Shown here one piece after another: positions 3,291 through 52,814 of a stretch of 64,000 bases of DNA. Below the pieces are notes generated by a model. It searched no databases and was not told the DNA's origin. It saw only the letters and a program-made list of their open reading frames with translations. The stretch is taken from contig QPMI01000150.1 of the NCBI GenBank assembly GCA_004431415.1, forward strand, positions 62,001 to 126,000. The letters run 5' to 3'. The translations under genes were made by a program, and so were the position numbers. Source of the stretch: Cyanophora paradoxa CCMP329 (lineage: Eukaryota > Plantae > Glaucophyta). The stretch's first letter is position 1; every line of letters begins with the position of its first letter.

Positions 3291-4154
3291 TACTCAGCAT
3301 TGTTAGCAACCACTACTAGTAGTAGTAGGCTAGCGCTAGTAGCCGCGCGGCCCGCGCCTCGCGATCGCGGACTCAGCAGGCTCGCGCGCAGCTTGATTAC
3401 TGTGAGCCGGGAAATATTTAGTATACTGGATCTTTCAAAGTTTCAAAGTTTATAGTACCAAAGTTGAGGCCCGTATGCAGCCCGCTCCGCGCGGCCAACT
3501 CTTAATTATATAATTATTTTCAGCCTACTAAATCGACGTCGGTGGCTCTTAATTATATAATTATTTTCAGCCTACTAAACCGAATCCTTGTGATTCCCGA
3601 TACCGTGACTTGTATCCTCGTTGTGTACTACGAGTGGACACGCCCACCGTAGATCTTTAAAAAAAAAAGACTGCATGAACTCCGGGATTACTAATTATTT
3701 TGGGATCTTAAATATTACCCGAATTACAGTAAGCTCAGCAGAGTCGCGCTGCAGCTGTGAGTCGCAGCTTAGCCAAGTAGAGTCGCACTGTGAGAGCTTA
3801 GAGCTTATCGAGGGCGCTCTAGATCATCGGATCTACTGTGAGATCTAGAGGCAGCAGTCCCTGTTCATGAGGGAGGGAGTTCTAGAAGACTCGGTGATCA
3901 TGACGTCGACTGCGCATGACGAAGGAAGAGCCGTGTCGGCCTTGGGGGAGATGGACTCCGGGAGAGGTACCGGTGGCCATGCCATGATGGGTTTCCCGGC
4001 TGGTTGCATTTGTGAACGATCACTGACTACCGATATCGACCCTGCGCGTGAAGAAGTAGAGGAGAGTGAGGCGCCCCGGCGGTCTTCGCACGCCCGAAGG
4101 CCCCGGTGGTCATGATCAGCGGCGCAGGCGCCGAACGATAACTAGCACGCCGAG

Positions 4155-25731: not shown

Positions 25732-28341
25732 CTAGCGCGTTAACGTTCCGAATCCTGGACGGGACCTGTGCAGTCGCGGCGCGAAAGGACGCGTGAGTGA
25801 GCGCCGAAGGCCTAGGACGCGTACGCGCGCGTGAGTGAAGGAAGGAGCTCTGCCTCTAGATCTAGATCTGCATACATGCGCAGTGCATGCATATGGCCCG
25901 TGCGCGCGCGTGGAGGCGCGCGTAGCCCCGGGAAGGCCAAGGATCTAAATCTAGATCTAGCGGAGGCGAATCGCACCGAGCTGCGAATCGCTCCACTCGT
26001 ACGGCGCGGACGTTTTGGGCTCTCCGGATATCGATCCGCCCGCGGCCGTACGCGTTTGGCCGCGCGGCCTGCGAGTTCGAAGCAGCTGCTCTGCTTCAGG
26101 CGAATCTACAGAAGAGGCTGCAGTCCTCGCACGTGTGCTGCATCAGCCTGCATGACGGCCGCGTAGCCGCGGCCTCGGATGTCACGGCGCGCGCCGGTGC
26201 CGGCGCGCGCGCGCGAGATATCGATTCTAGAACGCTCCGGATCCTTCTCACTCTTGCTCGCCGGCGCCGCCCTCCCCGCCGCGGCCGGGCCGAGCGTCAA
26301 CGCCGCGCAGGGCGGCGAATGCACAGGAGAGCTCGTACGCGTGCTACTTCGACGACGCCCGGGGCACGTGCCTCGGCGACCTCTACTCGACTGCTGGAGG
26401 TGCGCTGCCCCCGTTTCCGACTGCGTGCGATGCGCGTTTGCTGATCCAGGTGGATTCCGAGGCAATGCAGACGCTGGGCAGGAGAAACTGCTCAGTCAGG
26501 TCGTTGTGGGGGTACGGTACACTGGGGGGGGGGGCGGGGAGGGGTAGGCTAGACTGCGGAGCTCGCATGCGAACGACGTGCACGTGATCATATGCATGAT
26601 GGAGAAGCCGGCCGTACGTGTTGAGCCGCCGCTGAGCCTCGCGCGCAGCGTCGACCTCGGTCCGGTGCATGCATGCACGCGTGCAGCTCGGTGCGCATGC
26701 GACGCGCGCGCGCGCGCATTTTTGAATTCGCGATCGCTCTTTATCTATATCGATATCATGATCACTGCGGCGTATGCGCCGCGCGCCGCGGCCGCGCGCT
26801 GTACATGTCACGTGCACTCCATGCGCCATGGCTCGCTATGCCATGATGTATAACAATATATAAATAGAAGCTGCAGCGCTATACAGCTAGCGCAAAAGCT
26901 TCAATAAAGTCACCATAGTTGGCTTAGGATGGGAGAAAGGGCCTCTACTCTAAGCATACTGTCGGATGCAAGCAAATACTTGACGCGAGCCGCTGAGCTC
27001 AGATCTATAGCTAGATGGAAAGCGACATAGATATTGATGGAAAGGATCAAGACGTCCATTCTTAAGCTTGGCCTAGTTACCCAATAAGTGAGGCTAATTC
27101 TGAACTCCAAAAAGATTGCTCGGGACAAGGGAATGGCAGCTGTACAACGTGAAACTGAGAGGGTGACTGGCTGGAGGGTGAGAGGGTGAATATGAATGGT
27201 GGAGAGGCCAACGAAGAGAGGTACTACGGTATGGCGGCGTGCACACGATTTGCGGCACGAAAATAACGGAGCCTGGAAGGGCGTCTTGGGCTCGAAATCG
27301 AATGAAAACACGACGTGGTTGTCTCACTGAATGTCTGATGAGCCTCACTTGCACATGTGTTGCAGTAGGCATATACCTTCCCAAGTCCCTGTAGCCCTGT
27401 ACCCATATAGTCAGTCCACCTGTACCCCTAATACACCACCTTGCCAGCTATCTAGCCTGGCAATACCCTCGCCGGAGACTCTACGCGCACTCCGTGCTGG
27501 CCAGCTGTCAACAGCAGCTGCGCCGGCCGAGTCCGTAGGAGCTCGGCGCGTCTACGCGGTGATGCAACCGTGCGCGGCTCATCCAACCAGCTAGAGACTT
27601 CGAGGGGACCACAAGCATCAGCTCGCGACTCCGGAAGCGGCCCCGCCCGCGGCCGTTTCGGTGGACGAAGGGCAACTTGGCTCTCGGGCCCATCATCAGC
27701 CCGGCAAAAATTGTTTTTCGAGGCCAGCGAGCGAGCAATCAGCTCTCTAGCTATAGGGGACACTGCCCGGGCAGTGGGAGCCCGCGGGTCGCGCACCGCA
27801 TCGCGGCCGCGATCTTCGTAAGCTCCAGGCAGCTACGTTCGGAAGAGGCTTGCGGGGGCGTTTCGGCCACCCCGTAGGTCCGCCTTTCGTCGTAGTAAAG
27901 AGACGTCGTCAGGGGTCGTTTCGGCTGCCCCGCGCGCACGCTCTCGAGCCTTCCGGCGGCCCAGCTTCCAGCCGGCGGTCGCCAGCCCAGCTCGACACCA
28001 GGCGTGCGCGCGCGTGTGGGACGACGCCCACGGGCCGTACGCAGTGCTCGGAGGACTGGGGCGAGTGCGGAGCTCGACGGGCGGAGTGACGGCGGCGACT
28101 CTCGGAGGCGCGCTCACGACCTCGGCCAAGACCGCCACGACGCCCGCCTCAGCGCCGCGCATTCCACGGCCTTTCGAAGGGGGAGACTCTGCCAAAATTT
28201 TCGGCTCAGCTCGTCGCCAGCTCGCCAGCGATCAGCCAGCAGCCGCCCCGTACCAGCCCGCGGACAGCTGGCAGCGCCGCGAGCCCCGGCCTCATCCCCT
28301 CTCATCCCTTCTTTTTTTCCTTCATCTACTACCTCTCTACG

Positions 28342-31460: not shown

Positions 31461-32300
31461 GCATGTGAGAGGGGTGCTGGCTGGCCTCGGGGCCTGGCCG
31501 GTCGCCCTCCATCTGGGCTTGCTGCCCCCCCCCACCTCATCTTCTCCACGGCCCCAGCTCCCCCGGCGGCGATGCCGGCCCTCCCGCGGACCTCCTCCCC
31601 CTCGGCGGCGGCTCAGGCGGCTCGGCGACATGCACACCGCTGACGATCGACGTTCCATTATATATATTGTCTCGCTTGCGACGGCACGGCGGGGTTTTTG
31701 CCCGGTTTTTCCCCTGACCGTTACCGACCCTCGAGGGCATTCATCTGGCCCCGGGCGGCTTCTCCTTGCTCGCCCTCGATGGCAGTCCGTACGCTTCTTC
31801 TCGGACCTTTTTTTTCTCGGCCTCCTGCTTTACTTTCGATCTATAGCTAGCGCTAGCCTAGTAGCAGTGCGCGAGGACGCGCTCTCGTGAAATAGTAACA
31901 TGTTGCAGCTCGCAGCTAAGATATATATGGGCACGCGTCCTTTGTATTCTCCAGCTCCTATACTTATAGTCAGACCCCTTATCGCAGGCCCTCCCGATCC
32001 ATAGCATCTCGGAGGCTCTGAGGCTCGTACTCCCACATTTATATATGTACTCCCGCATCCATGTTGTACTCCCGCATACACGCTGGACCCATATATAGCT
32101 ATATATATAGCTATATAGGATTGATATCTTACACGTTCAAACGGTTGGATCTTGCTTGTAGTAGTCTAGTTGGTATCATATCTTTCGAGTTTCGTTTTCG
32201 AGGCCGCCCGGTCGGTGAGCGCGTAGGCTAAATAGGCGCTCTGGCTTGAGGTTGGGACCTCAGTTCTTCTTCATCGTACACCGCTCTTAGCTTAGCACAC

Positions 32301-33011
32301 CACGAGCCTCTCGTCTCGTGAAATAGTAACATCCCCTCGGCCAGCCACGAGCCTCTCGTCTCGTGAAATAGTAACATCCCCTCGGCCAGCCACGAGCCTC
32401 TCGTCTCGTGAAATAGTAACATCCCCTCGGCCAGCCACGAGCCTCTCGTCTCGTGAAATAGTAACATCCCCTCGGCCAGCCACGAGCCTCTCGTCTCGTG
32501 AAATAGTAACATCCCCTCGGCCAGCCACGAGCCTCTCGTCTCGTGAAATAGTAACATCCCCTCGGCCAGCCACGAGCCTCTCGTCTCGTGAAATAGTAAC
32601 ATCCCCTCGGCCAGCCACGAGCCTCTCGTCTCGTGAAATAGTAACATCCCCTCGGCCAGCCACGAGCCTCTCGTCTCGTGAAATAGTAACATCCCCTCGG
32701 CCAGCCACGAGCCTCTCGTCTCGTGAAATAGTAACATCCCCTCGGCCAGCCACGAGCCTCTCGTCTCGTGAAATAGTAACATCCCCTCGGCCAGCCACGA
32801 GCCTCTCGTCTCGTGAAATAGTAACATCCCTCGGCCAGCCACGAGCCTCTCGTCTCGTGAAATAGTAACATCCCCTCGGCCAGCCACGAGCCTCTCGTCT
32901 CGTGAAATAGTAACATCCCCTCGGCCAGCCACGAGCCTCTCGTCTCGTGAAATAGTAACATCCCCTCGGCCAGCCACGAGCCTCTCGTCTCGTGAAATAG
33001 TAACATCCCCT
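32301..33011 (+). repeat. Tandem array of 16 copies of a 45-bp unit
   Basis: Unit CACGAGCCTCTCGTCTCGTGAAATAGTAACATCCCCTCGGCCAGC. The copy at 32796 lacks one C and the last copy is partial. Confidence 0.98.
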
Positions 33012-36000
33012 GTACGCCGTTAAACGTTCGACTTCTCTCAGAGTTTCTCAGTATCTTTCGAAATTCCTCAGCTTTTTGATTCCTTTAATTTCGTATATTT
33101 ACAAGCAGGGGGGCAAGCCCCCCCGCACCCCCCCATTAACTGATGATCGATATCATGACCGTCGGACATAGCTATAGCGATCGCACGCGAATTCGAAAGA
33201 AACTTACACGCAGTAATGAATTTTTTCGCGATCTGGAATTCGAAGCATGTATACGTAGATCTAGATCTGCAGCTGCAGCTGAACTTCAATCCAATCGAGA
33301 AACGCGCAGCGTTGACGTCAGCGCCATACGCGTCGCGTCGGCCGCGCCGACCTCGATCTAGACTCTCAGATCTTGAGCTTCGGAAGCGGAGCTTCGGAAG
33401 ATCTAGCTATAGATCGGAACTGTTACAATTAGCTATTATATATTTCGAATCTTGCGCAGTTTGCCAGATCTAGAACGCCGGACGTTTTCAGGACAAAAGA
33501 ATTCGAATAATCTTCCTCGGCTTCGTCTTCAAATATACGGTCGCGGCCGCCGGGCACTTCATGATCCGAAGCGGGTGCTCATAAGCAGCGGCTTCGACAA
33601 AATCAGGATCACTGCTTTCGCGTGCGTTGACTTCGAATTCGAATTCACCTGCTGATATCGATGCGCCGCAGTGCTCCGTCTGCACAAGCTTAAGCATGCG
33701 CAGCAGCGCTAGCTACATGCGCAGCAGCACTAGTATGTACGCGGTTGCTAAGCGCAACTGCAGCAACGACAGCTGCTGCTGCTGCTCATGAATCATGATC
33801 AGCGGGCCTGCAGCTAGACTGCAGTGTGTTTCGGTTACTTTCCGTTACTTTTCGCTATCCGCCACTTAAGCTGTCCGTTACTTTCCGGAAACGTCCGTTA
33901 TAATTATCCGCCACTTTCCGTTACTTCCGTTATCTGCCACTTTCCATGCACGCCACTGGCCAGCTTAAACTGCTGGGAAAAACTCGACTCACGCGACAGT
34001 CGCGCGGCTCGCGCCACGCCGTGACGTCGACGGCGCCGCGTGGCGGGCACTGGCGGCGGCCACGGCCAGCGCGCGCCGCAGCGCGCCGCTGCGCGCGCGG
34101 CGCTACCGGCCGAGGTACCCGCGGTGACACATGTACACTGTGACACGTCAACCTGAGTGAAGGAAAATCCGGTACGTCCGATCGGATCGAACCGGTAGTA
34201 GTAGTCTGGTACTGGCGAAGGCCGAGGGGTACCGGACCGTCGATCGGATCGATTCGATTTTAATTTGTTTAATAGAAGTTGCCCGACAGCTCACTGAAAG
34301 AGTCCTAGTCAAAGTCGACGTCGCGGCCCGGGCTCGCGATTGCGACGTATACCGTACGTCGCGATCGGCTCAATTTGCGAGCACGTGCACGTAGTACCAC
34401 GTAGTAGCACGTACTACGGTACCGTAGTACTACGATCGCGTCCCGGCCCCCGGGTCCGCACGCATTTGGCGCGCACTACGACTGCGAATCCATGTGGCAT
34501 GCATTAAATTTCTTTAAAACCCAAACTGGAACCGGTTTTCGATCGATCGATTTCGATCCGCGCGCGGCTGGGCAAAATTAAAATTGCGGTTTTTAATCAG
34601 GCGAAGCCTCTTTCAGGCGAAGCCTCTTTCAGGCGAAGCCTCTTTCAGGCGAAGCCTCTTTCTCAAACCCAAAAACCGCCGATATAAATTCCTTTTTTAA
34701 CCTTTTTTTCCACTCAAGATCCCCCCTGCTAAATAATTTCCGCGTCGCACTCCCTCGAGGACGAATTATTAATTCTGCCTCGACACGGACGCGATTGCCG
34801 CTAATGACTCAGCTACCCTAACCCCCACAGACCTCTCTAGATCCATTTTTAGCGTCGTGGCTCCCCTAAGACGACCGCTCGCCCGTGGGCGTCGCGCGAA
34901 AATCGAATTTCCCTCTGGATCAATTCCGGTACTTAACCTCCGACAAATGCAGTCCGAGTCAGAAGGTGGGACCCGGTCCCGCCCGGTCCCGCGACGAAAT
35001 CGCGCCAGGGACGCCCCAGAACGATACAGAATGCCGCGCGAGGGCGAGCGCATCGCCGCAAGCTCGATTTCAAGCGCCGTCGACGCTCCAGTGCGAAGAG
35101 TCGGCCGAAAATTTGATCCAGCGCTAGCCGGTCCCGCCCGGTCCCGCGACGCGCGCAATCGATGCGTACTGGCGCGCATGGACATAGCAGGGCCTGCGCA
35201 CCCCCGAAATCCGCTTTTCGGAGCCGGAACAGCGCAGGAAGGTACCCGACGGCCAAAATTCGATCCTGCACGCGCCCTGACATCTTTCCGCGCGCCCACG
35301 CCGCGGCGCATGCGCGGAACGATAGCATAAGCATTTAAGATGTAGGCAAAGTCTTCCGCACGCTTTGCGTATGCGACGGGCCGCGAGGACCCAGCCGACC
35401 CCGAAAATTCGATCCTGCATGGACCTGCACATCTTTCCGCGCGCCCTCGCCTCGAGCTCCGCAGCCCCGCACATCGATGCTATAGCTATATGCATTCAAG
35501 ATTCTGTTTAAGCGATTCGCAAGCTCTGTGCATGCGCCTGGCCGCGAGAACCTTGCCCCTCCCGGGCCTCCCTCTCAACAATATTATATATAATTCATCT
35601 CCTCTAATCTCAACCTGCTCCGGCCTCCCTTTATTTCCTCAGTACATTAATATTCCTCTAGTTATATTCCTCTAGCCGGCCAGCGGTAGCTGGACTGGCC
35701 GTCAGCCGGCCAGCTTCCAACCAGAAAGCTGTTCGCGATCGGCCAGGCCGCTGGCCAGTGCCCTATAGGCCTACTGTGACAGCCGCGAGGGCGTCCGCGA
35801 GGCTTCGCCGTACTTAGTGCTCCGCAGGAGCACGGATCTTGTCTCAAAACCAAAAACGAACGGGTCCAAATTCCTTTTTTAACCTTTTTTTCCACTCGAG
35901 ATCCCCCCTGCTAAATAATTTCCGTATCGACACTCCTCAAGCCAGAATTATTAATTCTCCCTCGACACGGACGCGATTGCCGCAAATAACACAGCTACTC

Positions 36001-39000
36001 CAACCCCCACAGACCTCTCTAGATCCATTTTTAGCGTCCTGACTCCCCTAAGACGACCGCTCTCCCGTGGGCGTCGCGCGAATATCGAATTTCCCTCTGG
36101 ATCAATTCCAGTACTTAACCTCCGACAAACGCAGTCCGACTCAGAAGGTGGGATCCGGTCCCGCCCGGTCCCGCGACGAAACCGCGCCACGGACGCCCCA
36201 GAACGATACAGAATGACGCGCGAGGGCGAGCGCATCGCCGCAAACTCGATTTCGGGCGCCGTCGACGCTCCAGTGCGAAGAGTCGGCCGAAAATTTGATC
36301 CGGCCGGTTCCGCCCGGTCTCGCGACGCGCGCAATCGATGCGTACTGGCGCGCATAGACATAGCAGGGCCTGCGCACCCCCAAAATCCGCTTTTCGGAGC
36401 CGCAACAGCGCAGGAAGGTACCCGATGACAAAAATTCGATCCTGCACGGGCCCGGACATCTTTCCGCGCGCCCACGCTGCGGCGCATGCGCGGAACGATA
36501 GCATAAGCATTTAAGATGTAGAAGACGACTTCCGCACGGTCTCTAAATGCGCCGGGCCGCGGGGACCCAGCCAACCCCGAAAATTCGATCCTGTCCGGAC
36601 CTGAACATCTTTCCGCGCGCCCTCGCATTCTCGCGCATGCGCGTAGCTACTATCGCGCAGATTGAAACTTCTTGTTCAATCAACTCGAATAAATATTACG
36701 TGTGTACTCGCTAGGCTGGACTCGCTCCTCAACTGTCTCGCTCCCTTGCGCCACCTGAACTGGCCCAGTGCGCTCAACCTACTCTAGAGCTGTGCGAGCG
36801 GGGCACCGTGGCACCGGCGTGGGGGGTCCGGAGCCGGGCCAGCTCTCGAACGCCGTCCGAGGCTCTGGCGTACGAGCCAGCCCGGTGGCCCAGCTATATA
36901 TACGGTAGCCGGCCAGGCCGCTGGCCAGTGCCCTATAGGCCTACTGTGACAGCCGCGAGGGCGTCCGCGAGGCTTCGCCGTACTTAGTGCTCCGCAGGAG
37001 CACGGATCTTGTCTCAAACCCAAAAACCGACGATCCTAATTCCTTTTTTAACCTTTTTTTCCACTCAAGATCCCCCCTGCTAAATAATTTCCGTGTCGCA
37101 CTCCCTCGAGGCAGAATTATTAATTCTGCCTCGACACGGACGCGATTGCCGCTAATGACTCAGCTACCCTAACCCCCGCAGACCTCTCTAGATCCATTTT
37201 TAGCGTCGTGACTCCCCTAAGACGACCGCTCGCCCGTGGGCGTCGCGCGAAAATCGAATTTCCCTCTGGATCAATTCCGGTACTTGACCTCCGACAAATG
37301 CAGTCCGAGTCAGAAGGTGGGACCCGGTCCCGCCCGGTCCCGCGACGAAATCGCGCCAGGGACGCCCCAGAACGATACAGAATGCCGCGCGAGGGCGAGC
37401 GCATCGCCGCAAGCTCGATTTCAAGCGCCGTCGACGCTCCAGTGCGAAGAGTCGGCCGAAAATTTGATCCGGCCGGTTCCGCCCGGTCCCGCGACGCGCG
37501 CAATCGATGCGTACTAGCGCGCATAGACATAGCAGCGCCTCCGCACCCCCGAAATCCGCTTTTCGGAGCCGGAATAGCGCAAGAAGGTACCGGACATCAA
37601 AAATTCGATCCTTCACAGGCCTGGACATCTTTCCGCGCGCCAACGCCGCGGCGTATGCGCGGAGCAATAGTATAAGCATTTGAGATGTAGAAGAAGCCTT
37701 CCGCACGCTTTGCGTATGCGCCGGGCCGCGAGGACCCAGCCCACCCCGAAAATTCGATCCTGGACGGACATGTACATGTGCATCTTTCCGCGCGCCCTCG
37801 CACCCTCACGCGAGCGCATCGCTACAATTTTCAGTTGACTTCTTTTTAAAGCTTTTCGCAAGCTCTGCAGGCGCGACAGGGCTCGAGAACCCAGCCGACG
37901 CAAAAATTCGATCCTGAACGGGCCTGCACAGCTTTCCGCGCGCCCGCGCCGCGGCGCATGCACGGAACAATAGTATAAGCATTTGAGATGTAGAAGAAGA
38001 CTTCCGCACGCTTTGCGTATGCGCCGGGCCGCGAGGACCCAGCCCACCCCGAAAATTCGATCCTGGACGGACATGTGCATCTTTCCGCGCGCCCTCGCAT
38101 CCCCACGCATGCCCATCGCTACAGTATTCATTTGAGATCTAAACGAAGCCTTCCGCGACCTCTGTGGCCGCGACAAAGCACGAAAACCCAACCGACGCCA
38201 AATTTGCGATCCTGGACAGACCTGCACATATTTCTGCGCGCCCTCGCCTCCGCAGCCCTGCACATCGGTGCTATATGCGTTCGAGATTCTGTTTAAGCGA
38301 TTCGCAAGCTCTGTGCATGCGCCTGGCCGCGAGAACCTCGCCCCTCCCGGGCCTCCTTCCCAACAATATTATATAATTAATCTCCTCTCAATCTGCTCCA
38401 CCCTTTATTTCCTCAGTACATTAATATTCCTCTAGCCGGCCAGCGCTAGCTGGACTGGCCGTCAGCCAGCCAGCTTCCGAGTCCAGCCAGAAAGCTGTTC
38501 GCGATCGGCCAGGCCGCTGGCCAGTGCCCTATAGGCCTACTGTGCCAGCCGCGAGGGCGTCCGCGAGGCTTCGCCGTACTTAGTGCTCCGCAGGAGCACG
38601 GATCTTGTCAGGCGAAGCCTCTTTCGGGCGAAGCCTCTTCCGTAATCCGAAAACGAACGTGCCCTTTTCCTTTTTTTCCACCGCTCTCCGATTGGTCCGA
38701 GTGTCCAGAGTCGCAACCTCCGCAATGAAGGCGAACGGTCCCGGACATTACATAGCTGCCCGCGGACGTGACACTTATTTTTGGACTCGAAGCTCCCCTA
38801 AGACGACCGCTCTCCCGTGGGCGTCGAACGAAAAATCGAATTTCCCTCCAGGATCAATTCCGGTATTTATACCCCGGGGTTCGATCGCGAAATCCCAAAA
38901 AGTGGGACCCGGTCCCGCGACGAAAGCAAGCCAGGGACGCGCCAGAGCGGTCAGAATGACAGCCAAGAGCGCGCGCATCGCGCCAAGCTCGATTTCGGCC

Positions 39001-40576
39001 GCCGTGGACGCTCCAGTGCAAGGAGTCGGCCGCAATTTTGATGCTGCCGGTTCCGGCCGGTCCCGCGACGCGCGCATTCGATGCGTACTGGCGCACATAG
39101 ACATAGCAGGGCCTGCGCACTCCCGAAATCCGCTTTTCGGAGCCGGAACAGTGCAGGAAGGTGCCCGACGGCAAAAATTCGATCCTGCACAGCCCCGGGC
39201 AACTTTCCGCGCGCCCACGCCGCGGCGCATGCGCGGATCAATAGTATATGCATTTGAGATGTAGAAGAAGCCTTCCGCACGGTCTCTAAATGCGCCGGGC
39301 CGCGAGGACCCAGCCGACCCCGAAAACTCGATCCTGGACGGACCTGCACATCTTTCCGCGCGCCCTCGCGTCCTCACCCGTGCCCATCGCTACAGTATTC
39401 ATCTGAGATCTAAACGAAGCCTTCCGCAAGCTCTGTGGCCGCGACAGAGCACGAGAACCCCGCCGACGCCAAATTTTCGATCCTGGATAGGCCTACACAT
39501 ATTTCCGCACGCCCTCGCCTCCGCAGCCCTGGACATCAATCCAGTATGCATCCGAGACTCTGTTTAAGCGATTCATAAGCCCTGTGCATGCGCCCGGCCG
39601 CGAGAACCTCGCCCCTCCCCTCAACAATCTCCTCTCAATTTCCTCAGGGCCTCGAGCTCAACTACAGCTACCTGATTGGCAGCACCACTCCTCCCCTCAT
39701 TATATTCTGCCTCAGCTGCACCAATTCCCCCGATTACAGAATTATATTTTCTCAGGAAATCTCCTCTCAGGACAACTCCCCCCATAATTATATTCCGTCG
39801 CAGCAGCCCTCCCCTCCCCTCTCCCTCCCCTGCCACGCCGCCAGCTGATTGGCAGCACCGCTCCTCCCCTCATTATATTATTCTCAAGCCCAATAATATT
39901 CCCTCTCACCAGCCCTCCCCTCCCCTCTCCCTGCTCCACCGACCCAGACACAGCCGCGACGGGCCGCGATGATAAAGGGGGACGCGAGGAGGGCTGCTGA
40001 GGCTTCGCCCGATGTTTGGGACCCGCAGGGGCCCAGGGCTTGTCTCAAACCCAAAAACCGACGATCCTAATTCCTTTTTTAACCTTTTTTTCCACTCAAG
40101 ATCCCCCCTGCTAAATAATTTCCGTGTCGCACTCCCTCGAGGCAGAATTATTAATTCTGCCTCGACACGGACGCGATTGCCGCAAATAACACACCTACTC
40201 TAACCCCCACAGACCTCTCTAGATCCATTTTTAGCGTCCTGGCTCCCCTAAGACGACCGCTCGCCCGTGGGCGTCGCGCGAATTTCGAATTTCTCTCTGG
40301 ATCAATTCCGGTACTTAACCTCCGACAAATGCAGTCCGAGTCAGAAGGTGGGACCCGGTCCCGCCCGGTCCCGCGACGACATCGCGCCAGGGACGCCCCA
40401 GAACGATACAGAATGCCGCGCGAGGGCGAGCGCATCGCCGCAAGCTCGATTTCAAGCGCCGTCGACGCTCCAGTGCGAAGAGTCGGCCGAAAATTTGATC
40501 CGGCCGGTTCCGCCCGGTCCCGCGACGCGCGCAATCGATGCGTACTAGCGCGCATAGACATAGCAGCGCCTCCGCA

Positions 40577-42547
40577 GGCACCCTCCTCGCGCTCGAGCTC
40601 GAACTTACATGCCAGTGCACAGGCCTGAAGCATCCATTATGCAAATTTCTAATTATAAACAAGGGAACCAGGACAGCCGGCCCATATATGTATACTCCAT
40701 GCGCGCAAGCGCATCGCTAGGCCCTTGCAATTGAGCTCATGATCATATGCATATGCATATGTAGAAGCTGTACCCAACGCGCAAGGCTGCCTCGCCGCCG
40801 TTGAGGTCGATCTCGGCAACCCGAACCGCAAGCTCAAAATACGCCTTATGTAAACTGTGCAATTGAGCGATGTCTCTCAACGCGCACCCGGGCCGGGACG
40901 TAGGTCCGCATCTGTCAGGACCTCTCGGTCGCCAGCCGTCAGGCGGTGTACGCCGGCCTCACCCCGGAGCAGCAAGCCGCGGGCCTCTCTTACCGCATCT
41001 TCTGCGGCATCCAGGGCGTCTACACGGACGACGCGCTCACCGCCATGTGCCAGGTCCGCCCCGGGCCAACCTGGACCCCAATACGGGCCCATAAAAGGAA
41101 TCTAAAAGATCACGCCACCCCGTGCGCGGGCACCTGACTAAACCTCTGCCCCCGCAGGCGGTCTGGCTTGAGCCTGAGCTCTTCGACGGCAAGATCAAGG
41201 TCGTGAACCTCACGGCCCTGCAGCCCCACAAGTACAAGCGCGACGGCGACAACATCGCTGTCATCGGAAAGGAGGTGCAGCCCGCGCTCGACGCGGACGA
41301 CTCCGAAGACGAGGACCAGGAGGTCCGTACCCCCCACCCCCGAGGGCCCCTGTACCCCCCCTGACAGCAGAACCGCTCGACAGTCGCTCTACCCCGACTC
41401 GTTGGCCCTGGCGGCCTCCGAGACCAGCGCGAAGGTCGTCACGGAGCACCGTATCCACTACCCCAACGGGGTGGGCGGCCGCGCCTCGTACCGCCCCGGC
41501 CACTCCACCACGGCCCGCCGGCTCAACCGCCTCAGCGCCCTCAACGAGGGCAAGACCAGCGAGGAGGCAGCCAAGATAGCGGCGGAGATCGCCGCCAAGT
41601 CCCGCAAGCGCGTGAACGAGCGCTTCGGGCCCGACGCACGCAAGAAGAGCAAGGGCGGCGCCGCCGCCCCAGCCGCCCCCGCGCCCCACCCCGCCGCCGC
41701 CGGCGCCGCTGCCGCGGCAGCCGCCGCCGCCCCGCGCCGATCGCCGCCCCGCGTCCGCCCCGGGCCCGGCCCCGCCCCGGCCCCGCCCGGCCAACATCAC
41801 GCTCGCCAACTACCAGGCCACCCAGAAGCTCCTCACCGAGCTCACGGCGGCCATCGGCGGCCCCGCCGCCGTAGAGGCCTACCTCGCCGGCCGCCGCGCC
41901 GCGGCAGCGGACAACGTAGCGGCGTAGACTCTCTAGGACCCCCCTAGAGCTGGGGCCTCCGGCCACCCCCCTTTCTTTCTCTCAGTTAATCCTTTTCTAT
42001 TTCCCTGAGCGGCCTCAAGGCCTTGCTCCCTTCCCGGGCGAGACACACAGCTGTCATGTACGCTATGTGAAGCAAATGCCAGGCGCGCGCCCAAGACCCC
42101 CGATCAGGCCACCCCTGCCCCTCGCCCCCCACCTTAGCCCCGGCCCTGCTGGGCCACCACCTAGCCCGTGCTCACCCCTCCCTTACGTACCGAGCCCCAT
42201 CCCGGCCCCCCCCGGGACACCCGCCCCGCGCCTCTCACGCCCAACGCTAGGGGGACGTGCAACCGCCCTAGGCCTGTACTACCCCCCCACCTCACCCCAC
42301 CCCCCCACCCCCCCTACCGACTACGTATCGCCAACGCAAGCCCAAGAAGGACACCCCGCCCAAGCTCTCCCCCAAGGCCACACTGAACGCTTAGAGTTAG
42401 CGTCGAAGCGCCTATCCCTGTGTACCGGCCACAGGTCATGAGCTGACCCAGAGTTCGGCCTATACCGAACCGGTAGTGCATACGATGAAGTCAGTGGTCT
42501 GAGAATACAATCACCGCCCAAGAATTGGGCTATCCTGAAAAAAAAAA
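40577..42547 (+). mobile_element. Non-autonomous retroposed element with poly(A) tail and 15-bp TSD
   Basis: AGCAGCGCCTCCGCA is duplicated at 40562-40576 and 42548-42562, with an A-run at 42538-42548. The empty homologous site is present near 37530. Confidence 0.92.
40904..41927 (+). CDS. Intron-containing unknown protein inside the retroposed element (5' end unresolved; probable frameshift in the C-rich tract)
   Basis: Exons 40904-41053, 41158-41322 and 41384 onward join in phase 0 through GT-AG introns with CTGAC branch motifs; codons are GC3-rich. Confidence 0.65.
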
Positions 42548-45500
42548 AGCAGCGCCTCCGCACCCCCGAAATCCGCTTTTCGGAGCCGGAATAGCGCAAG
42601 AAGGTACCGGACATCAAAAATTCGATCCTTCACAGGCCTGGACATCTTTCCGCGCGCCAACGCCGCGGCGTATGCGCGGAGCAATAGTATAAGCATTTGA
42701 GATGTAGAAGAAGCCTTCCGCACGCTTTGCGTATGCGCCGGGCCGCGAGGACCCAGCCCACCCCGAAAATTCGATCCTGGACGGACATGTACATGTGCAT
42801 CTTTCCGCGCGCCCTCGCACCCTCACGCGAGCGCATCGCTACAATTTTCAGTTGACTTCTTTTTAAAGCTTTTCGCAAGCTCTGCAGGCGCGACAGGGCT
42901 CGAGAACCCAGCCGACGCAAAAATTCGATCCTGAACGGGCCTGCACAGCTTTCCGCGCGCCCGCGCCGCGGCGCATGCACGGAACAATAGTATAAGCATT
43001 TGAGATGTAGAAGAAGACTTCCGCACGCTTTGCGTATGCGCCGGGCCGCGAGGACCCAGCCCACCCCGAAAATTCGATCCTGGACGGACATGTGCATCTT
43101 TCCGCGCGCCCTCGCATCCCCACGCATGCCCATCGCTACAGTATTCATTTGAGATCTAAACGAAGCCTTCCGCGACCTCTGTGGCCGCGACAAAGCACGA
43201 AAACCCAACCGACGCCAAATTTGCGATCCTGCACAGACCTGCACATATTTCTGCGCGCCCTCGCCTCCGCAGCCCTGCACATCGGTGCTATATGCGTTCG
43301 AGATTCTGTTTAAGCGATTCGCAAGCTCTGTGCATGCGCCTGGCCGCGAGAACCTCGCCCCTCCCGGGCCTCCTTCCCAACAATATTATATAATTAATCT
43401 CCTCTCAATCTGCTCCACCCTTTATTTCCTCAGTACATTAATATTCCTCTAGCCGGCCAGCGCTAGCTGGACTGGCCGTCAGCCAGCCAGCTTCCGAGTC
43501 CAGCCAGAAAGCTGTTCGCGATCGGCCAGGCCGCTGGCCAGTGCCCTATAGGCCTACTGTGCCAGCCGCGAGGGCGTCCGCGAGGCTTCGCCGTACTTAG
43601 TGCTCCGCAGGAGCACGGATCTTGTCGGGCGAAGCCTCTTCGGGCGAAGCCTCTTCCGTAATCCGAAAACGAACGTGCCCTTTTCCTTTTTTTCCACCGC
43701 TCTCCGATTGGTCCGAGTGTCCAGAGTCGCAACCTCCGCAATGAAGGCGAACGGTCCCGGACATTACATAGCTGCCCGCGGACGTGACACTTATTTTTGG
43801 ACTCGAAGCTCCCCTAAGACGACCGCTCTCCCGTGGGCGTCGAACGAAAATCGAATTTCCCTCCAGGATCAATTCCGGTATTTATACCCCGGGGTTCGAT
43901 CGCGAAATCCCAAAAAGTGGGACCCGGTCCCGCGACGAAAGCAAGCCAGGGACGCGCCAGAGCGGTCAGAATGACAGCCAAGAGCGCGCGCATCGCGCCA
44001 AGCTCGATTTCGGCCGCCGTGGACGCTCCAGTGCAAGGAGTCGGCCGCAATTTTGATGCTGCCGGTTCCGGCCGGTCCCGCGACGCGCGCATTCGATGCG
44101 TACTGGCGCACATAGACATAGCAGGGCCTGCGCACTCCCGAAATCCGCTTTTCGGAGCCGGAACAGTGCAGGAAGGTGCCCGACGGCAAAAATTCGATCC
44201 TGCACAGCCCCGGGCAACTTTCCGCGCGCCCACGCCGCGGCGCATGCGCGGATCAATAGTATATGCATTTGAGATGTAGAAGAAGCCTTCCGCACGGTCT
44301 CTAAATGCGCCGGGCCGCGAGGACCCAGCCGACCCCGAAAATTCGATCCTGGACGGACCTGCACATCTTTCCGCGCGCCCTCGCGTCCTCACCCGTGCCC
44401 ATCGCTACAGTATTCATCTGAGATCTAAACGAAGCCTTCCGCAAGCTCTGTGGCCGCGACAGAGCACGAGAACCCCGCCGACGCCAAATTTTCGATCCTG
44501 GATAGGCCTACACATATTTCCGCGCGCCCTCGCCTCCGCAGCCCTGGACATCAATCCAGTATGCATCCGAGACTCTGTTTAAGCGATTCATAAGCCCTGT
44601 GCATGCGCCCGGCCGCGAGAACCTCGCCCCTCCCCTCAACAATCTCCTCTCAATTTCCTCAGGGCCTCGAGCTCAACTACAGCTACCTGATTGGCAGCAC
44701 CACTCCTCCCCTCATTATATTCTGCCTCAGCTGCACCAATTCCCCCGATTACAGAATTATATTTTCTCAGGAAATCTCCTCTCAGGACAACTCCCCCATA
44801 ATTATATTCCGTCGCAGCAGCCCTCCCCTCCCCTCTCCCTCCCCTGCCACGCCGCCAGCTGATTGGCAGCACCGCTCCTCCCCTCATTATATTATTCTCA
44901 AGCCCAATAATATTCCCTCTCACCAGCCCTCCCCTCCCCTCTCCCTGCTCCACCGACCCAGACACAGCCGCGACGGGCCGCGATGATAAAGGGGGACGCG
45001 AGGAGGGCTGCTGAGGCTTCGCCCGATGTTTGGGACCCGCAGGGGCCCAGGGCTTGTCCGTAACCCTAAAACGAACGACGTTTATTCCTTTTTTTCCACT
45101 GCTTCGCGATTGGTCCGAGCGTCGAGGATCGCAACCTCCGCATCGAACCGCGATTGGTCACAGATGTAACACAGTTGCCCACAGACGTGACACTTATTTT
45201 TAGACTCGAAGCTCCCCTAAGACGATCACTCTCCCGTCGGCGTCGCGCGAAATCGAATTTCCCTCACGGATCAATTCCGGTATTTATACCCCGGGGCTCG
45301 ATCGCGAAACTCCAAAAAGTGGGACCCAGTCCCGCGACGAAAGCGCGCCAGGGACGCGCCAGAGCGGTCACAATGACAGCCAAGAGCGCGCGCATCGCGG
45401 CAAGCTCGATTTCGGCCGCCGGGCCGCCCTCGACGCTCCAGTCCAGAGAGTCGGCCGAAATTTTGATCCTGCCGGTTCCGGCCGGTTCCGCGACGCGCGC

Positions 45501-48500
45501 ATGCGATGCGTACTGGCGCGCATAGACATAGCAGGGCCTGCTCACTCTAGATATCCGCTTTTCGGAGCCGGAACAGCGCAGAAAGGTGCCCGACAGCAAA
45601 AATTCGATCCTGCACAGCCCCGGGCATCTTTCCGCGCGCCCACGCCGCGGCGCATGCGCGCATCAATAGTATAAGCATTTGAGATGTAGAAGAAGACTTC
45701 CGCACGGTCTCTAAATGCGCCGGGCCGCGAGGACCCAGCCGACCCCGAAAATACGATCCTGTACGGACCTGCACATCTTTCCCCGCACCCTCGCGTCCTC
45801 ACCCATGCCCAACGCTATAGAGTATTCATTTGAGATCTAAACGAAGCCTTCCGCAAGCTCTGTGGGCGCGAAAGAGCACGAGAACCCAGCCGACGCCAAA
45901 TTTTCGATCCTGGACAGGCCTCCACATATTTCCGCGCGCCCTCGCCTCCGCAGCCCTGGACATCGATCCTGTACGCATCCGACATTCTGTTTAAGCGATT
46001 CATAAGCTCTGCCCATGCGCCTGCCCGCGAGAACCTCCCGCTTCCCCTTAACAATCTCCCCTCAATTTCATCAGGGCCTCGAGCTCAACTACAGCTAGCT
46101 CATTGGCGGCACCACTAGTACTCCTCCCCTCATTATATTCTAGCTGCATAATTATACTCTCCATAGACAGCTCCTCTCAGGACAACTCCGCCCATAATTA
46201 TATTCCCTCTCAGTAGCCCTCCCCTCCCGTCTCCCTGCCCCACCGACCCAAAGACAGCTGCGACAGGCCGCGATGAACAAGGGGGGCGCGAGGTGGGCGG
46301 CAGAGGCTTCGCCCGATGTTTGGGACCCGCAGGGGCCCAGGGCTTGTGCTCCGCAGGAGCACGGATCTTGTCTCAAACCCAAAAACCAACGAGCCAAATT
46401 CCTTTTTTAACCTTTTTTTCCACTCGAGATCCCCCCTGCTAAATAATTTCCGTGTCGCGACTCCTCGAGCACGAATTATTAATTCTGCTTCGACACGGAC
46501 GCGATTGCCGCAAATAACACACCTACTCTAACCCCCACAGACCTCTCTAGATCCATTTTTAGCGTCCTGGCTCCCCTAAGACGACCGCTCTCCCGTGCAC
46601 GTCGCGCGAATTTCGAATTTCTCTCTGGATCAATTCCGGTACTTAACCTCCGACAAATGCGGTCCGAGTCAGAAGGTGGGACCCGGTCCCGCCCGGTCCC
46701 GCGACGAAATCGCGCCAGGGACGCCCCAGAACGATACAGAATGACGGGCGAGGGCGAGCGCATCGCCGCAAGCTCGATTTCGGGCGCCCTCGACGCTGCA
46801 GTCCGAACAGTACGCCGAAATTTGATCCTCCCGGTTCCGGCCGGTCCCGCGACGCGCCGCGGCGCGCAATCGATGCGTACTGGCGCGTATAGACATAGCA
46901 CGGCCTGCGCACCCCCGAAATCCGCTTTTCGGAGCCGGAACAGCGCAGGAAGGTACCCGACGGCAAAAATTCGATCCCACACGGGCCCGGACATCTTTCC
47001 GCGCGCCCACGCCGCGGCGCACGCGCGGAACGATAGCATAAGCATTTAAGATGTAGAAGAAGACTTCCGCACGGTCTCTAAATGCACCAGGCCGCGAGGA
47101 CCCAGCCGACCCCGAAAATTCGATCCTGGACGGACCTGAACATCTTTCCGCGCGCCCTCGCATTCTCGCGCATGCGCATCGCTACAATATTCATTTGAGA
47201 TTTTATCAAAGCCTTCCACAAGCTTCGAAGACGCGAAAGAGCACGAGAACCCAGCGGACGGCAAAAATTCGATCCTGCACGGACCCGGACATCTTTCCGC
47301 GCGCCCACGCCGCGGCGCATGCGCGGAACAATAGCATAAGCATTTGAGATGTAGAAGACGCATTCCGCACGCTTTACAGATGCGCCGGACCGCGGGGACC
47401 CAGCCGACCCCGAAAATTCGATCCTTCACGGACCTGCACATCTTTCCGCGCGCCCTCGCATCCTCACGCGAGCGCATCGCTACAATATTCAGTTGAGATC
47501 TTTTTAAAGCTTTTCGCAAGCTCTGCGGGCGCGACAGGGCACGAGAACCCAGCCGACGCAAAAATTCGATCCTGAACGGGCCTGCACATCTTTCCGCGCG
47601 CCCACGCCGCGGCGCATGCTCAGAGCTATACAATATGCATTTGAGATATAGAAAAAGCCTTTCGCACGCTCTCTAAATGCGCCGGGCCGCGAGGACCCAG
47701 CCGACCCCGAAAATTCGATCCTGGACAGATCTGCGCATCTTTCCGCGCGCCCTCGCATCGTCACGCAAGCGCATCGCTACAATATGCATTTGAGATCGGT
47801 TTAAAGCTTTCCGCGAGCTCTGCGGGCGCGACAGCGCACGATAACCCAGCCGACGCCAAAAAGTCGATCCTGGCCACGCCTGCACATCTTTCCGCGCGCG
47901 CTCGCCTCCGCAGCCCCGTTGCTATATGCATTCGAGATTCTGTTTAAGCGATTCGCAAGCTCTGTGCATGCGCCTGGCCGCGAGACTCTGAGAACCTCGC
48001 CCCTCCCGGGCCTCCTTCCCAACAATATTATAACAATAAACTCCTCTCAATCTAGATCTGCTCCACCCTTTATTTCCTCAGTACATTAATATTCGATCCT
48101 CTAGCCGGCCAGCGCTAGCTGGACTGGCCGTCATGATCATGATCACCCAGCCAGCTTCCAGCCAGAAAGCTGTTCGCGATCGGCCAGGCCGCTGGCCAGT
48201 CGCTGAGTGCCCTATAGGCCTACCAGGTACTGTGACAGCCACGAGGGCGTCCGCGAGGCTTCGCCGTACTTAGTGCTCCGCAGGAGCACGGATCTTGTTA
48301 AATTAACGTGCTGACATTTTGAGTTTAGTTTCACTTGGGGTAATGTGTCTGGCGTTATCGCAGCAGATTTTCGAGAATAAACGCGGTACCTAATTGTAAA
48401 TCTGAAGTCAAAATTTAATTTGTGATTGTGATGTAATTTACGTTATGCCACACTGTGTTCTCATATGCGTTGACACAACCCTAAGGTAAGTTTTCTGACC

Positions 48501-48609: not shown

Positions 48610-48754
48610 CAGTGCGCGAGGACGCGCACTCGTGAAATAGTAACATGTTGCAGTAGGCATATACCTTCCCAAGTCCCTGTAGCCCTGTACCCATATAGTC
48701 AGTCCACCTGTACCCCTAATACACCACCTTGCCAGCTATCTAGCCTGGCAATAC
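48610..48754 (+). repeat. B|A junction copy (circle-junction-like) of the YR element repeats
   Basis: 36-bp B (one mismatch to 31865-31900; perfect hairpin AGTGCGCG-AGGA-CGCGCACT) is fused directly to 109-bp A, identical to 27358-27466. Confidence 0.95.
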
Positions 48755-49006: not shown

Positions 49007-52000
49007 CTAGGCGGGCGGCGGGGGGGCTCCCTGGAGGGCGGCGCGGATCGCCTCCTGCAGCTTGTCGCGCGTGATCGGCTTGCTCCTGCGGAGGAGGAAG
49101 TCAGGGGCCAGCAACCTCGAGGAGGACGAGTTGCTCTCGAGGAGGGGGAGGGGGGGGAGAAGGAAGGGGAGGGGTAGTGGGGCGCACAGGAACCCGACCA
49201 TGCCGACGCGCATGCAGCGGCCGCGCGTCTCCTGCATCGCCGCCGCCGTCCTGCGCCCCGTCCCGCCCCGTCCCGCCTCGGCGCTCGGGGGAGGAAGAGG
49301 GGGCGCGGGGGCGGGGGGCGGACAGGGCGATGAAGGGCGGGGGCGGGTGGGCGCCGGGGGCGCGTGCCTCCTCGAGGATGCGCCGCGTGGCCTCGATGCC
49401 GTCGAGCCGCGGCATCTGGATGTCCATCAGGCACACTGCCCGCCCCCGCCCCCGCCGGGGCCCCCGTCAGCGGCGAGGAGGCCGGGCGCGCGGAGCGGGG
49501 GGGGGGGTGGGGGGGGCGGCGGCGGGGGCGGGCCGTCGAAGCGGGCGCGGCGGCAGGCGGCGACGGCCTCGAGGCCGTCCGAGGCGACCTCCACGTCGTA
49601 CCCAGCCGCTCCAGGATCCGCCGCTGCAGCACCTGCGGGGGGCGGGGCGGGGTCGGTCAGCCGGGGGCGGGGGCCGCGTCGGTGGTGCGCGCGCGCCTGG
49701 TTCACGCTGTTGTCGTCGCAGAGGAGGACGCGCAGCGGGGCCGCCCGCCCCGCCTCCGCCCCGGCCTCCGTGCTCACGGAGTCGCGCCGGGGCAGCCCCT
49801 CGGGGCTCGCCGGCAGCGAGGAGGCGCGGGCCTGCGGCGAGAGAGGCGTCTCCTCCAGAGGCGGAGGCGGCGGCGGCGCCTGCTCGGCGCCGACGACGGC
49901 GCGGGGGAGGAGGACGGTGAAGGTCGAGCCGGCGCCGAGCTGCGCGGCAGGGGTCAGCGGGGCGCGCCGCGGGAGGGTCGGCGTGGGGCCGGGGGGGCGG
50001 CCTGGGAGGCGACGGCGACCGAGCCGCCCCAGAGGCGGGCCAGGTGCCGCACGATGGGGAGCCCGAGCCCCGTGCCCCGAACTGCGAGCGAGCGCCGGCG
50101 TCGGGCGGGGCGGGCGGGGGCGAAAGTGCAGGGGCGGGGGCGGGGGGCGGGCCTCGCGCGTGGTGGAGGCGTCGGCCTGGCTGAAGCGGTCCCAGATGCG
50201 CTCCAGCCGGTCCGCCGCGATGCCTGCGCCCCCGCCCCGCCCCGCCCTCGGCGTCGCGCTGGCAGCGGAGCGGAGGGGGCCGGGGTGGCGGGGCGGGCGG
50301 CACCGATGCCCTGGTCGAGCACCTCGAAGCGGACGGCGGGGCCCTCGGGGGCCACCCGCAGCCGCACCGCCCCGCCCCGCGTGAACTGCCCCCGCGCAGG
50401 GCCGCGGGGTGAGGCGGGCCGGGGCGGCGGGCGCCGCCGGCGGGGCGGACCTTCACGGCGTTGGAGAGGAGGTTGACCTGGGGCGGGGGGCGGGGCGGGG
50501 CTCGGCGCGGCGCGGGCGGCAGGGGCAGGAGGGGGCGGGGGGCCGGGGCCGCACGAGGATCTGCCGGAGGCGCACTTCGTCTCCCTCGAGGGCCTCGGGG
50601 CCGCCGCGTCCACCTCCGACGAGAGCCGCGTCCCGCTGCTCCCCGCCGCGCCCCGCCCGGCCCGCCGTCAGCGAGGCGAGGCGAGGCGCGCGGGGGAGCT
50701 CGGGGGCGCGCGTGTCGTGGGCGCGGCAGGCGACGACGCGGAGGGCGTCCTCCACGACGCGGCGCAGGGGGAAGGCCCGCCGCTCCAGCTCCAGCTGCGC
50801 GCCCGCCCCGGCGTCTCGGCCCGCGCCCTCGCGCCTCGGCTTGCGGGCTCGCGGGCTCGGGGGCGGGCGCGCCTTGCCCTGCTCGACCTTGGAGAGGTCG
50901 AGGATGTCCGAGATGAGCGTCAGCAGGTGCGAGCCGCACGTCAGGATCGTCGACACGTCCTTCTCCTGCACGCGCCCCTCAGCGCCGGCCCCGGCGCGGG
51001 GCGGGGCGCTGCGCGGGGCGCGGGGCGCGGGGCGGGGAAGGGACCTGCTGCGGGGTGCAGGAGGCGCGGAGCTCCTCGGCGCACATGATGACGCTCGAGA
51101 GCGGCGTCCGCAGCTCGTGGCTCATCGTGCACAGGAACTCCGACCTGCGCGCCGCGCCGCCCCGTCGATGCCGGGGCGGGGGCCCGCCCCGCGGAGGAGT
51201 CGCAGGGCGGACTTGCAGCGGGAGGCGCAGTCGGCGGCGCGCTTCGCCTCGAGCAGCTGCCGCTGGTTCGCCTCTAGCGCCGCCTCCACCGCCTGGCCCC
51301 GCGTCGGCGGCCGGGGCGGGGCGGGGCGGGGCGGCGGGGGCGGACCTTGCGCTCGGCGATCTCGGCGGTGAGGCGCCCGATGGTGGCGGCGAGGGCGCGG
51401 TTCGCCTCCTCGAGCCGCGCGTACGACGCCAGCAGCTCCCGCTGGTTCCTCTCCCACCGCTGCCCGCCACGCTCGGCCCGGGTGCGCGGGGCGGGGCGGG
51501 GCGGCGGGGCGGGCCTCGAGGTTGGAGAGGATGAGCTCCAGCTTGGAGCTCTGCAGCCGCTGCGCCGACTCCTCCGGCGGCACGAAGTACCTGGGGGAGG
51601 GGAGGGGCAAGAGGGCCCGTCACGGCCCGCCCGCTGGGCCGGGGCGGGGCGGGGCGGGGGGGCGCGCATGTTGCGGTGCTCGTGGTGCTCGTCGTCGCTC
51701 CCCCGGCACCAGACCGTCGGGCTGCCGGCAGGTCAGCCCTCCGGGGCGGGGGCGGGGGCGGGGGGCGGGGGCGGGGGGGCACTGGACGAAGAGTATGTCG
51801 AGGAGCTCCTGCGCGGGGTGCTCGTCCATGTCGAAGATGCACATCGCCGTGTACGCCGCACCCTCGCCCCCGGCCCCCTGCTGCCGCCCCGCCCCCGCAC
51901 CATCGACCTCCACCTCGCGCAGGGGCTGGGCGGGGCGGGGCGCACGGCCATCCAGTCGGTGATGCGGGCCTCGTACGTGCGGACGTCCTCGTATATGTCG

Positions 52001-52814
52001 CCGGCGACGGCCCTGTCCACGGCGCAGATCCACCCCATGTCCCCCGCCACACGCAGCCCCGTGTAGCCCTCTGCGCCCCCGCGCCGGCGGCCGTCGGCCC
52101 CCGCGCCGCGCCGCTCCGGGGCGGGGCGGGGCGGGGCGGACCGGCGAGGGAGGCGGCGAGGCCGTCCTGCATGCGGTGGAGGACGGCCTCGCCGCTGAAA
52201 AGCCGCCGCCCCGCCTCGTCCGGCGGCTCCAGGTACCCCTCCACGGGCTCCACTGCGCCGCGCGCGCGCGCTCCTCAGCGAGGGGGGGCGGAGGGCGAGC
52301 GCGCCGGGCGCGGGCGCACTGAAACTGAGGCGGCCGGACGCGAGGGCGCTGGACACGGAGGCGTCGCCCATCTCCTCGCAGAGGCGCAGCAGGACGAAGT
52401 CCCGCCGGCGCGCGGGGATGAGCCCGCGGATCTTCTCGCCGCGGCGGAGGCCGTGCGCGAAGTACCCTGCGACCCGAGACGCATACTCGTCGCCCCCGCG
52501 CACGACTGCCCCAGCGGGATCAGCTGGATCGCAGCCCGAGAGGACCGGAGGCAGAGCGCACAGAAACACTGGTGCGACCCAGGGATGCCCCGAGGATCGG
52601 CAGAAGGTGCCTGCGAGCAGTCACACGGGCAAATTCTCGGTATGTCGGCTTCCTCGCCCCCCCGTCTCCGTTTTCGAGTGGCAGGGCTCCTGCAGCTGCG
52701 CGACGCGATGGCTCTCATCCCCTCGTTCGAGTCGTTATTGCATCGAGATCCATCGTACCGTGGGGAGCAAGAATCGATCTGATCTGATGCGCTCATCGCG
52801 CTGGCGGTGACCAT
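49007..52814 (-). CDS. Hybrid histidine kinase: MEDS - coiled coil - HisKA - HATPase - receiver (multi-exon)
   Basis: MEDS: HQCF, GLRRGEK, LRVAGDMGW, YEARI, AMCIFD. H-box EFLCTMSHELRTPL; N-box NLLSNAVK; G1 VLDQGIG; F-box FSQADASTTR; G2 GTGLGL. Receiver: VLLCDDNSVNQ, LMDIQMPRLDG, KP. Confidence 0.92.

Follow-up and report, generated by a model that had tools for sequence, protein, structure and literature searches.

The window analysed here is a single 64-kb stretch of the Cyanophora paradoxa genome. Translations point to an intron-rich minus-strand gene with what we take to be histidine-kinase H-box, N-box and receiver-like motifs (~49100-52600), to a presumed Yip1-family membrane protein (20479-21384, plus strand) and to a presumed DXD-type glycosyltransferase (24916-25731, minus strand). 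Another intron-rich gene is duplicated (9130-11926 and 17150-19934, 92.8% identity), and a ~260-bp AT-rich MITE-like element with ~17-bp terminal inverted repeats occurs in two copies that are 85% identical (2401-2668 and 15837-16087). A 109-bp segment is found twice at 100% identity (27358-27466 and 48646-48754), and a minisatellite at 32300-33011 (45-bp period, copies near-100% identical) has a unit similar to the DNA immediately preceding the 109-bp copy at 48646.

Positions 34650-48300 form a tandem array of complex build: its units measure 1.2-1.6 kb and contain sub-repeats of ~149 bp, and it also shows a palindrome of 29 bp and a higher-order duplication of ~3 kb. The array could be a major satellite or a tandem non-autonomous element. 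Summed depth over this array was very high in DNA runs, and its cover was near nil in the runs that we call RNA-like. The insertion under study sits inside the array, and its footprint comprises the following features:

40562..40576, plus strand: left copy of the target-site duplication (TSD), 15 bp
40577..42547, plus strand: insert, 1,971 bp, edged by the TSD copies and the A-tail
42538..42548, plus strand: A-tail, 11 A, the final A being common to tail and TSD
42548..42562, plus strand: right copy of the TSD, 15 bp
37531..37545, plus strand: empty target site in a sister repeat unit, the 15-mer single and unsplit

The initial annotation had described a 1.97-kb insert with an A-tail, a perfect 15-bp TSD and an empty site near 37530, and this description was borne out, with 1,971 bp, 11 A and an empty site at 37531. 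The left and right TSD copies (AGCAGCGCCTCCGCA) match exactly over 15 bp, and the 15-mer occurs three times in the 64-kb window (37531, 40562 and 42548). The 2,070 bp lying 3' of 37531 and 3' of 42548 are 99.7% identical. Among the homologous array sites listed, only two of seven have this variant of the 15-mer, and empty-site forms of the array are present in the DNA runs too. The plus strand of the window contains four A-runs of at least 7 nt, and the insert's run alone is followed by a sequence that is repeated upstream. Another A-run (10 A) lies at 3659-3668, with no upstream duplication within 8 kb.

No LTRs, long direct repeats or pseudo-LTRs were found at the insert ends, nor any terminal inverted repeats (TIRs) of the DNA transposon that the initial annotation had weighed against a retro-insertion. 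An A-tail and a long TSD without terminal repeats constitute the footprint of target-primed reverse transcription (TPRT). The insert displays this non-LTR pattern in its 3' poly(A), its long TSD with an empty site and its absent LTRs and TIRs. Both ends were seen for one insertion (n = 1), and statements on the A-tail and TSD cover that copy alone; low-complexity matches aside, the 64-kb window contains no further copy of the insert.

Layout and decay of the insert copy

The insert contains an open reading frame (ORF) with three introns, the longest relative of which is the 569-aa C. paradoxa gene model P0004. From 5' to 3', the parts of this copy are:

40577..40772, plus strand: 5' leader, 196 nt, 49% GC, common to more copies than the ORF
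40773..40838, plus strand: exon 1 remnant, matching P0004 residues ~245-267, no in-frame ATG upstream
40839..40903, plus strand: intron 1, 65 nt, phase 0; gene models P0002 and P0004 join across it
40904..41053, plus strand: exon 2, 150 nt
41054..41157, plus strand: intron 2, 104 nt, phase 0, GT..AG, CTGAC motif
41158..41322, plus strand: exon 3, 165 nt
41323..41383, plus strand: intron 3, 61 nt, phase 0, GT..AG, CTGAC motif
41384..41927, plus strand: exon 4 to stop, with a single frameshift near 41720-41790 in a GC-rich Ala/Pro stretch
41928..42537, plus strand: 3' region, its last ~140 nt common to many more copies and to diverged sister families

The leader probably serves the family as its 5' UTR/promoter module, and it meets the middle of the ORF between 40772 and 40773. 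DNA contigs end at 40772, others start at 40773, and one RNA contig exits the leader at 40772 into exon-4-like sequence; several internally deleted forms therefore have this leader in common. Two RNA contigs part from the window exactly at 40577 and run 21 nt further, placing the start of the insert copy at or near the 5' end of the family. The ORF lacks the first ~244 residues of P0004 and has no in-frame ATG; an ATG inside intron 1, used as the start of gene model P0001, was rejected as a true start. The exon 4 frameshift is a mutation or an assembly error. Given the 5' deletion, the missing start codon, a dead intron 1 donor and the frameshift, this copy cannot make protein and is a passenger.

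Summed over contigs, and hence not a measure of copy number, depth in the four DNA runs reached 6,335, 1,587, 2,697 and 7,490 at 42410-42479 versus ~60-800 over the exons, a roughly tenfold excess in all four, and it was raised over the leader too (40590-40659). This is the pattern expected if many truncated or deleted copies share a 3' end. Contigs have loose ends at 42398 and 42487, and the terminal ~140 nt are likely the end recognized by a reverse transcriptase (RT). The predicted RNA fold of the 3' end did not differ significantly from shuffled sequences (z = -1.64, 13 of 200 shuffles as good). Searching the insert against Rfam gave no match at gathering thresholds, including no hammerhead, and one chance-level match (E = 1.9). 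Just 5' of the conserved end lies a short lysine-rich open stretch (42316-42393), which could be all that is left of the C-terminus of an ORF2 lost by deletion. The insert had been annotated as devoid of an RT, and none was found in it; the RT part of a related gene model at another locus, P0003, has no match anywhere in the window.

Introns and splicing in sister copies

GT-AG introns had initially been annotated on the A-tail strand at 41054-41157 and 41323-41383, with a probable third ending at 40903. The former two are spliced exactly there in contigs of sister copies from RNA-like runs: one X19 contig skips intron 2 (exactly 104 nt, GT..AG), and contigs from X16, X17 and X19 skip intron 3 (exactly 61 nt, GT..AG). 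The third is 40839-40903, with a GT donor in sister copies (40839 is G in all four DNA runs) that is dead (AT) in the insert; its splicing was not observed in the four RNA-like runs. With the three introns removed, the ORF is free of stops until the one frameshift in exon 4. Introns 2 and 3 both have CTGAC 23-24 nt upstream of the acceptor. The motif GT(C/G)CG(C/T)...CTGA(C/T)...(C/T)AG occurs 25 times in the window, two of the occurrences being introns 2 and 3, as a motif count only. In the available text of PMC6704402, C. paradoxa introns are described as short and dense (mean 86 bp, 9.2 per gene).

The RNA status of the four runs is a guess from satellite cover, no run being recorded as RNA and the contigs being strandless. 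Depth over the flanking satellite was zero in three of these runs and 11-25 in the other, compared to 30,000-93,000 (summed) in the DNA runs, and with cover this close to absent the four behave as RNA. The spliced contigs represent a sister subfamily ~90-97% identical to the insert, not the insert copy. Contigs of X16 and X17 retain intron 2 with intron 3 spliced out, and the listed exon differences are shared between them and the intron-2-splicing contig of X19, from which we infer that splicing is incomplete in vivo. At 41134-41138, the X16/X17 sister subfamily, in which intron 2 is retained, has two changes in the branch-point motif of that intron.

DNA contigs cross unspliced intron 2 in all four DNA runs and, among the pieces listed, unspliced intron 3 in two of the four, in each case with 0 differences. 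No clean GT..AG skip was present among the 15 of 20 DNA-run joints that were seen. Contigs of DNA runs X8 and X14 stop at 41325 and resume at 41383, the edges of intron 3; given these breaks and the 15 of 20 joints covered, intron 3 may be variant or absent in some genomic copies, that is, intron-less copies may exist.

Differences between the insert copy and the RNA contigs were read from a partial list (40 of 180). Across exons 2 and 3, 14 of 16 were synonymous third-position changes, and intron 2 had 17 differences in 104 nt. Within the limits of that list, the mostly synonymous exon changes suggest that the spliced frame is under purifying selection in the family. Recent gain of the introner type was rejected, because the introns are common to sister copies and intron 2 lies at the same junction in distant members. 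With three introns still present, the insert also differs from a processed pseudogene.

Protein family and its reverse transcriptase link

As the initial annotation had anticipated, further copies exist: the insert belongs to a multi-copy family of 12 gene models on 11 contigs (~30-100% identity), of which P0001, the twelfth, matches the insert exons at 100% and bears a model name of the same form as the rest. P0004 lies on contig tig00000137, P0007 on tig00000383, P0008 and P0009 both on tig00000203 and P0003 on tig00020572. Searching with exon 4 returned five gene models (66-100% identity), and HMMER, run with the P0004 core against 1.84 billion representatives, returned nine proteins, the lowest at 30% identity; one further cluster member brings the total to 12. 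No relative outside C. paradoxa was found among these representatives, all 11 models looked up being from this species, and metagenome scans for the family found nothing. Several of the models are fragmentary, which fits mobile copies in decay.

Distant members bear on the age of the introns. Similarity to P0009 stops at ...RMSE/V and resumes in the adjacent P0008 at Q/SVWLK, exactly at the exon 2/3 junction, and P0007, P0010 and P0011 have an insertion at the same junction that ends in Q. Read from protein sequence only, these breaks and insertions are probably unspliced intron 2, with V encoded by the GT donor and Q by the CAG acceptor. At the intron 3 position, P0007, P0010 and P0011 show no break and their proteins are shorter there; the argument for an old intron is therefore confined to intron 2.

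The initial annotation regarded the encoded protein as unrecognized. A diverged LINE ORF1, a gag-like RNA-binding protein, is a likelier identity for it than unrelated cargo, and its fold is weakly RRM-like (Z < 4). This identity is likely but weakly shown, because there is no match to a Pfam ORF1 family, no CCHC knuckle, a model with a mean pLDDT of 53 and a best Z of 3.9. Among 11 family proteins, Pfam matched RVT_1 in P0003 only and no ORF1 family (neither DUF4283 nor Transposase_22), and the CCHC zinc knuckle was absent in P0004 and P0002. The disordered basic N-terminus, alpha/beta core and low-complexity tail of the family protein presumably correspond to the layout of ORF1 proteins.

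A first AlphaFold model was discarded (pLDDT 36). The model retained covers P0004 residues 126-462 and was built from 8 sequences (mean pLDDT 53, with 63-83 over residues 151-230); its best-predicted region, model residues ~164-277, aligns with RRM and other ferredoxin-like chains. In a wide structural search, 18 of 50 rows covered model residues ~148-308, and 11 of these were titled RRM or RNA-binding and two Cse3. The best Z for the RRM-like part was 3.9, below the meaningful level and possibly reflecting a common arrangement; the alignment to TIA-1 RRM1 (Z 3.8, rmsd 4.7, 97 aligned) was made on the same model of mean pLDDT 53. These alignments are weakly compatible with the RRM typical of LINE ORF1 described in available parts of PMC5203782. 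L1 ORF1p was absent among the structural matches listed, and the two may still be kin.

Foldseek of the model against PDB and BFVD gave no match at E<=0.001, and when P0004 or a family profile was searched against PDB sequences, all matches were of low complexity or non-significant. ESM Atlas clusters that were unnamed or labelled as fungal DUF7730/2EXR (0.89-0.92) were dismissed as noise for sharing few features, and model residues 55-148, whose matches are nucleotidyltransferase-like (Z<=4.3), were set aside as a low-confidence part of the model.

The sole RT linked to the family is in P0003, in which an L1-like RT piece precedes exon 4 and is joined to it, both being on one strand. Its match to Pfam RVT_1 (E = 5e-6) falls under the curated cut-off, and the best PDB match of residues 70-209 is human L1 ORF2p (E = 8e-11 to 2e-10), ahead of R2 proteins (2e-8 and weaker). 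An RT before exon 4 is the reverse of the normal LINE order and would call for copies in tandem or nested arrangement, or else for a permuted element with its genes in another order.

Origin of the insertion and its implications

The insertion footprint, the introns, the splicing of introns 2 and 3 in sister copies, the partly spliced RNA, the selection on the spliced frame and the multi-copy status were observed. The reading we favor, and judge probable, is that the insert is a broken copy of a multi-copy retroposon family: a HAL1-like derivative of an L1/Tx1-type LINE that underwent internal deletion, travels as a passenger and entered the site by TPRT of unspliced RNA, with ORF1 made from spliced mRNA and RT acting in trans. 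That the insert itself came from intron-bearing RNA is very likely.

Under the favored reading, intact copies would produce an ORF1-type protein, an RRM-type RNA chaperone, from spliced mRNA, and an autonomous L1/Tx1-type element would give RT and endonuclease in trans. The RT would take hold of sense transcripts with introns still in by their conserved 3' end and poly(A), probably in the nucleus, and TPRT of this unspliced polyadenylated RNA would let introns survive every round, all copies presumably moving in this way. The insert copy, with a deletion between the 5' leader and mid-ORF1 plus loss of ORF2, would move as a passenger only. In human L1, splicing gives dead-end copies (PMC5860796, available text), which may be a reason for selection to favor the unspliced template. 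The division of labor proposed in the initial annotation, with unspliced RNA moving and spliced RNA encoding protein, thus stood in part: the TPRT hallmarks and the splicing of sister copies support it, but the insert copy, with its 5' deletion, absent ATG, dead donor and frameshift, cannot be a source of protein.

HAL1 elements are mammalian, have an intact ORF1 and are not known to contain introns. The insert resembles them, as they are presented in the available text of PMC5753468, in being non-autonomous, with one ORF, no RT, an A-tail and a TSD, and is likely an ORF1-only L1-type derivative. Unlike them, its family has three spliceosomal introns, a glaucophyte host and a weakly shown ORF1, and its own ORF is truncated, not intact. 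We call the insert HAL1-like, and filing it as HAL1 would need the parent element to be found. Such an internal-deletion derivative is more likely than a new class of element.

The insert also has much in common with L1/Tx1 LINEs that carry a type I ORF1 (RRM with or without CCHC; PMC5203782, in part), namely an A-tail, a long TSD, 3'-end enrichment, the L1-like RT piece in P0003 and possibly the weak RRM-like fold. It differs from them in lacking an ORF2 (APE endonuclease plus RT), and its family in lacking a CCHC knuckle and any DUF4283 or Transposase_22 match, although type I ORF1 variants without the knuckle are described in the same partial source. The word 'intron' does not occur in the main text of that LINE ORF1 survey, and LINE coding introns are not described in the available text of PMC9940879, PMC12477816, PMC7175516, PMC5718144, PMC4641428, PMC5890265 and PMC12344493. 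In the open literature, with Repbase Reports, theses, book chapters, subscription papers and supplements outside the search, we found no description of a LINE with ORF1 coding introns or of this Cyanophora family. LINEs make up ~2.5% of the C. paradoxa genome, with no family-level description in the available text of PMC6704402.

The gene order in P0003 could be taken at face value. The autonomous element would then have the RT first and the intron-bearing ORF last, beside the A-tail, the insert would be a shortened copy with its natural 3' half and the ORF might be an accessory gene instead of ORF1. No known ORF1 profile matches the family proteins, and the ORF stop lies just ~610 nt before the A-tail with no RT remnant detected between, both of which fit this order. 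We nonetheless consider it unlikely, because other copies have the separate leader joined to various points of the ORF, as internal deletion from the 5' UTR explains better than simple 5' truncation, and because P0003 is an automatic gene model, able to bridge neighboring elements.

The ORF could instead come from a family of host genes, perhaps derived from an ORF1 that was domesticated and later gained introns. The insert would then be an occasional retrocopy or chimera, made by a LINE RT from pre-mRNA whose splicing was incomplete, and not part of a self-propagating family that keeps introns. Such a gene is just as consistent with spliced RNA and purifying selection, intron-retaining transcripts exist and the bounded insertion is a single case. 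A host gene is less easily reconciled with the many near-identical genomic variants that differ in internal joints but have a common 5' leader and 3' end, with the fragmentary gene models or with the lack of relatives beyond C. paradoxa among 1.84 billion representatives, and this explanation, too, is improbable.

Spliceosomal introns are kept after retrotransposition in Penelope-like elements (PLEs), including the green-algal Chlamys (PMC8557442 and PMC3846280, in the parts available). According to the same partial sources, these elements are documented intron retainers, able to carry intron-bearing genes in trans. A PLE RT could have mobilized the insert; alternatively, the insertion could have been a spliced cDNA whose introns were put back through gene conversion by a master copy that had them. 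Both routes are very unlikely. The insert, unlike PLEs, has no pseudo-LTRs or other terminal repeats, no hammerhead (which many Chlamys and Naiad elements also lack, according to available text of PMC8557442), no GIY-YIG domain and no PLE RT, and it ends in a poly(A) on the sense strand. No ORF of at least 250 aa in the insert matches a PLE RT or GIY-YIG, P0001 is without a Pfam match, and the sole family-linked RT resembles L1 ORF2p. PLE introns have been characterized mostly in the 5' UTR (within an ORF in one Adineta copy), as far as the available descriptions go, whereas those of the insert are in the coding region. Gene conversion would have had to restore three introns, one of them with a donor change absent from DNA contigs.

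Movement at the DNA level (a DNA transposon, a Helitron or repair capture), with the A-run and 15-bp repeat coincidental, would keep introns without any special mechanism but is highly improbable in view of the absent TIRs, the exact 15-bp duplication right after the A-run, of which the sister unit has the sequence only once, and the enriched 3' end.

The Tetrahymena REP LINE, a non-LTR element that lies beside LRR exon/intron units, has been suggested to co-retrotranspose introns that were not spliced out (PMC6564038, available text). As described there, the idea is an undemonstrated one and concerns host repeats in the flanks, whereas in Cyanophora the introns interrupt a gene of the element itself and lie between TSD and A-tail.

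Intron keeping by retroelements has so far been credited mainly to Penelope elements. If the reading of the insert as a LINE passenger is true, LINE-type machinery would be able to use unspliced RNA as a routine template in a protist rich in introns, and intron loss would be weakened as a retrocopy test in such genomes. The family would offer a natural system for the choice of an RT between spliced and unspliced templates, a question that is open for Penelope too, and around twelve of the 'genes' of C. paradoxa probably represent parts of this retroposon. A broader proposal, which we put forward tentatively, is that the family represents an old Cyanophora LINE lineage with structural-gene introns at fixed positions since the split to ~30% identity, one that makes ORF1 from spliced mRNA and always reverse-transcribes unspliced polyadenylated RNA. 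Such a lineage would have a retrovirus-like split between message and genome, breaking the cis-preference rule of LINEs, and intron-bearing genes would be retroposable intact in Cyanophora.
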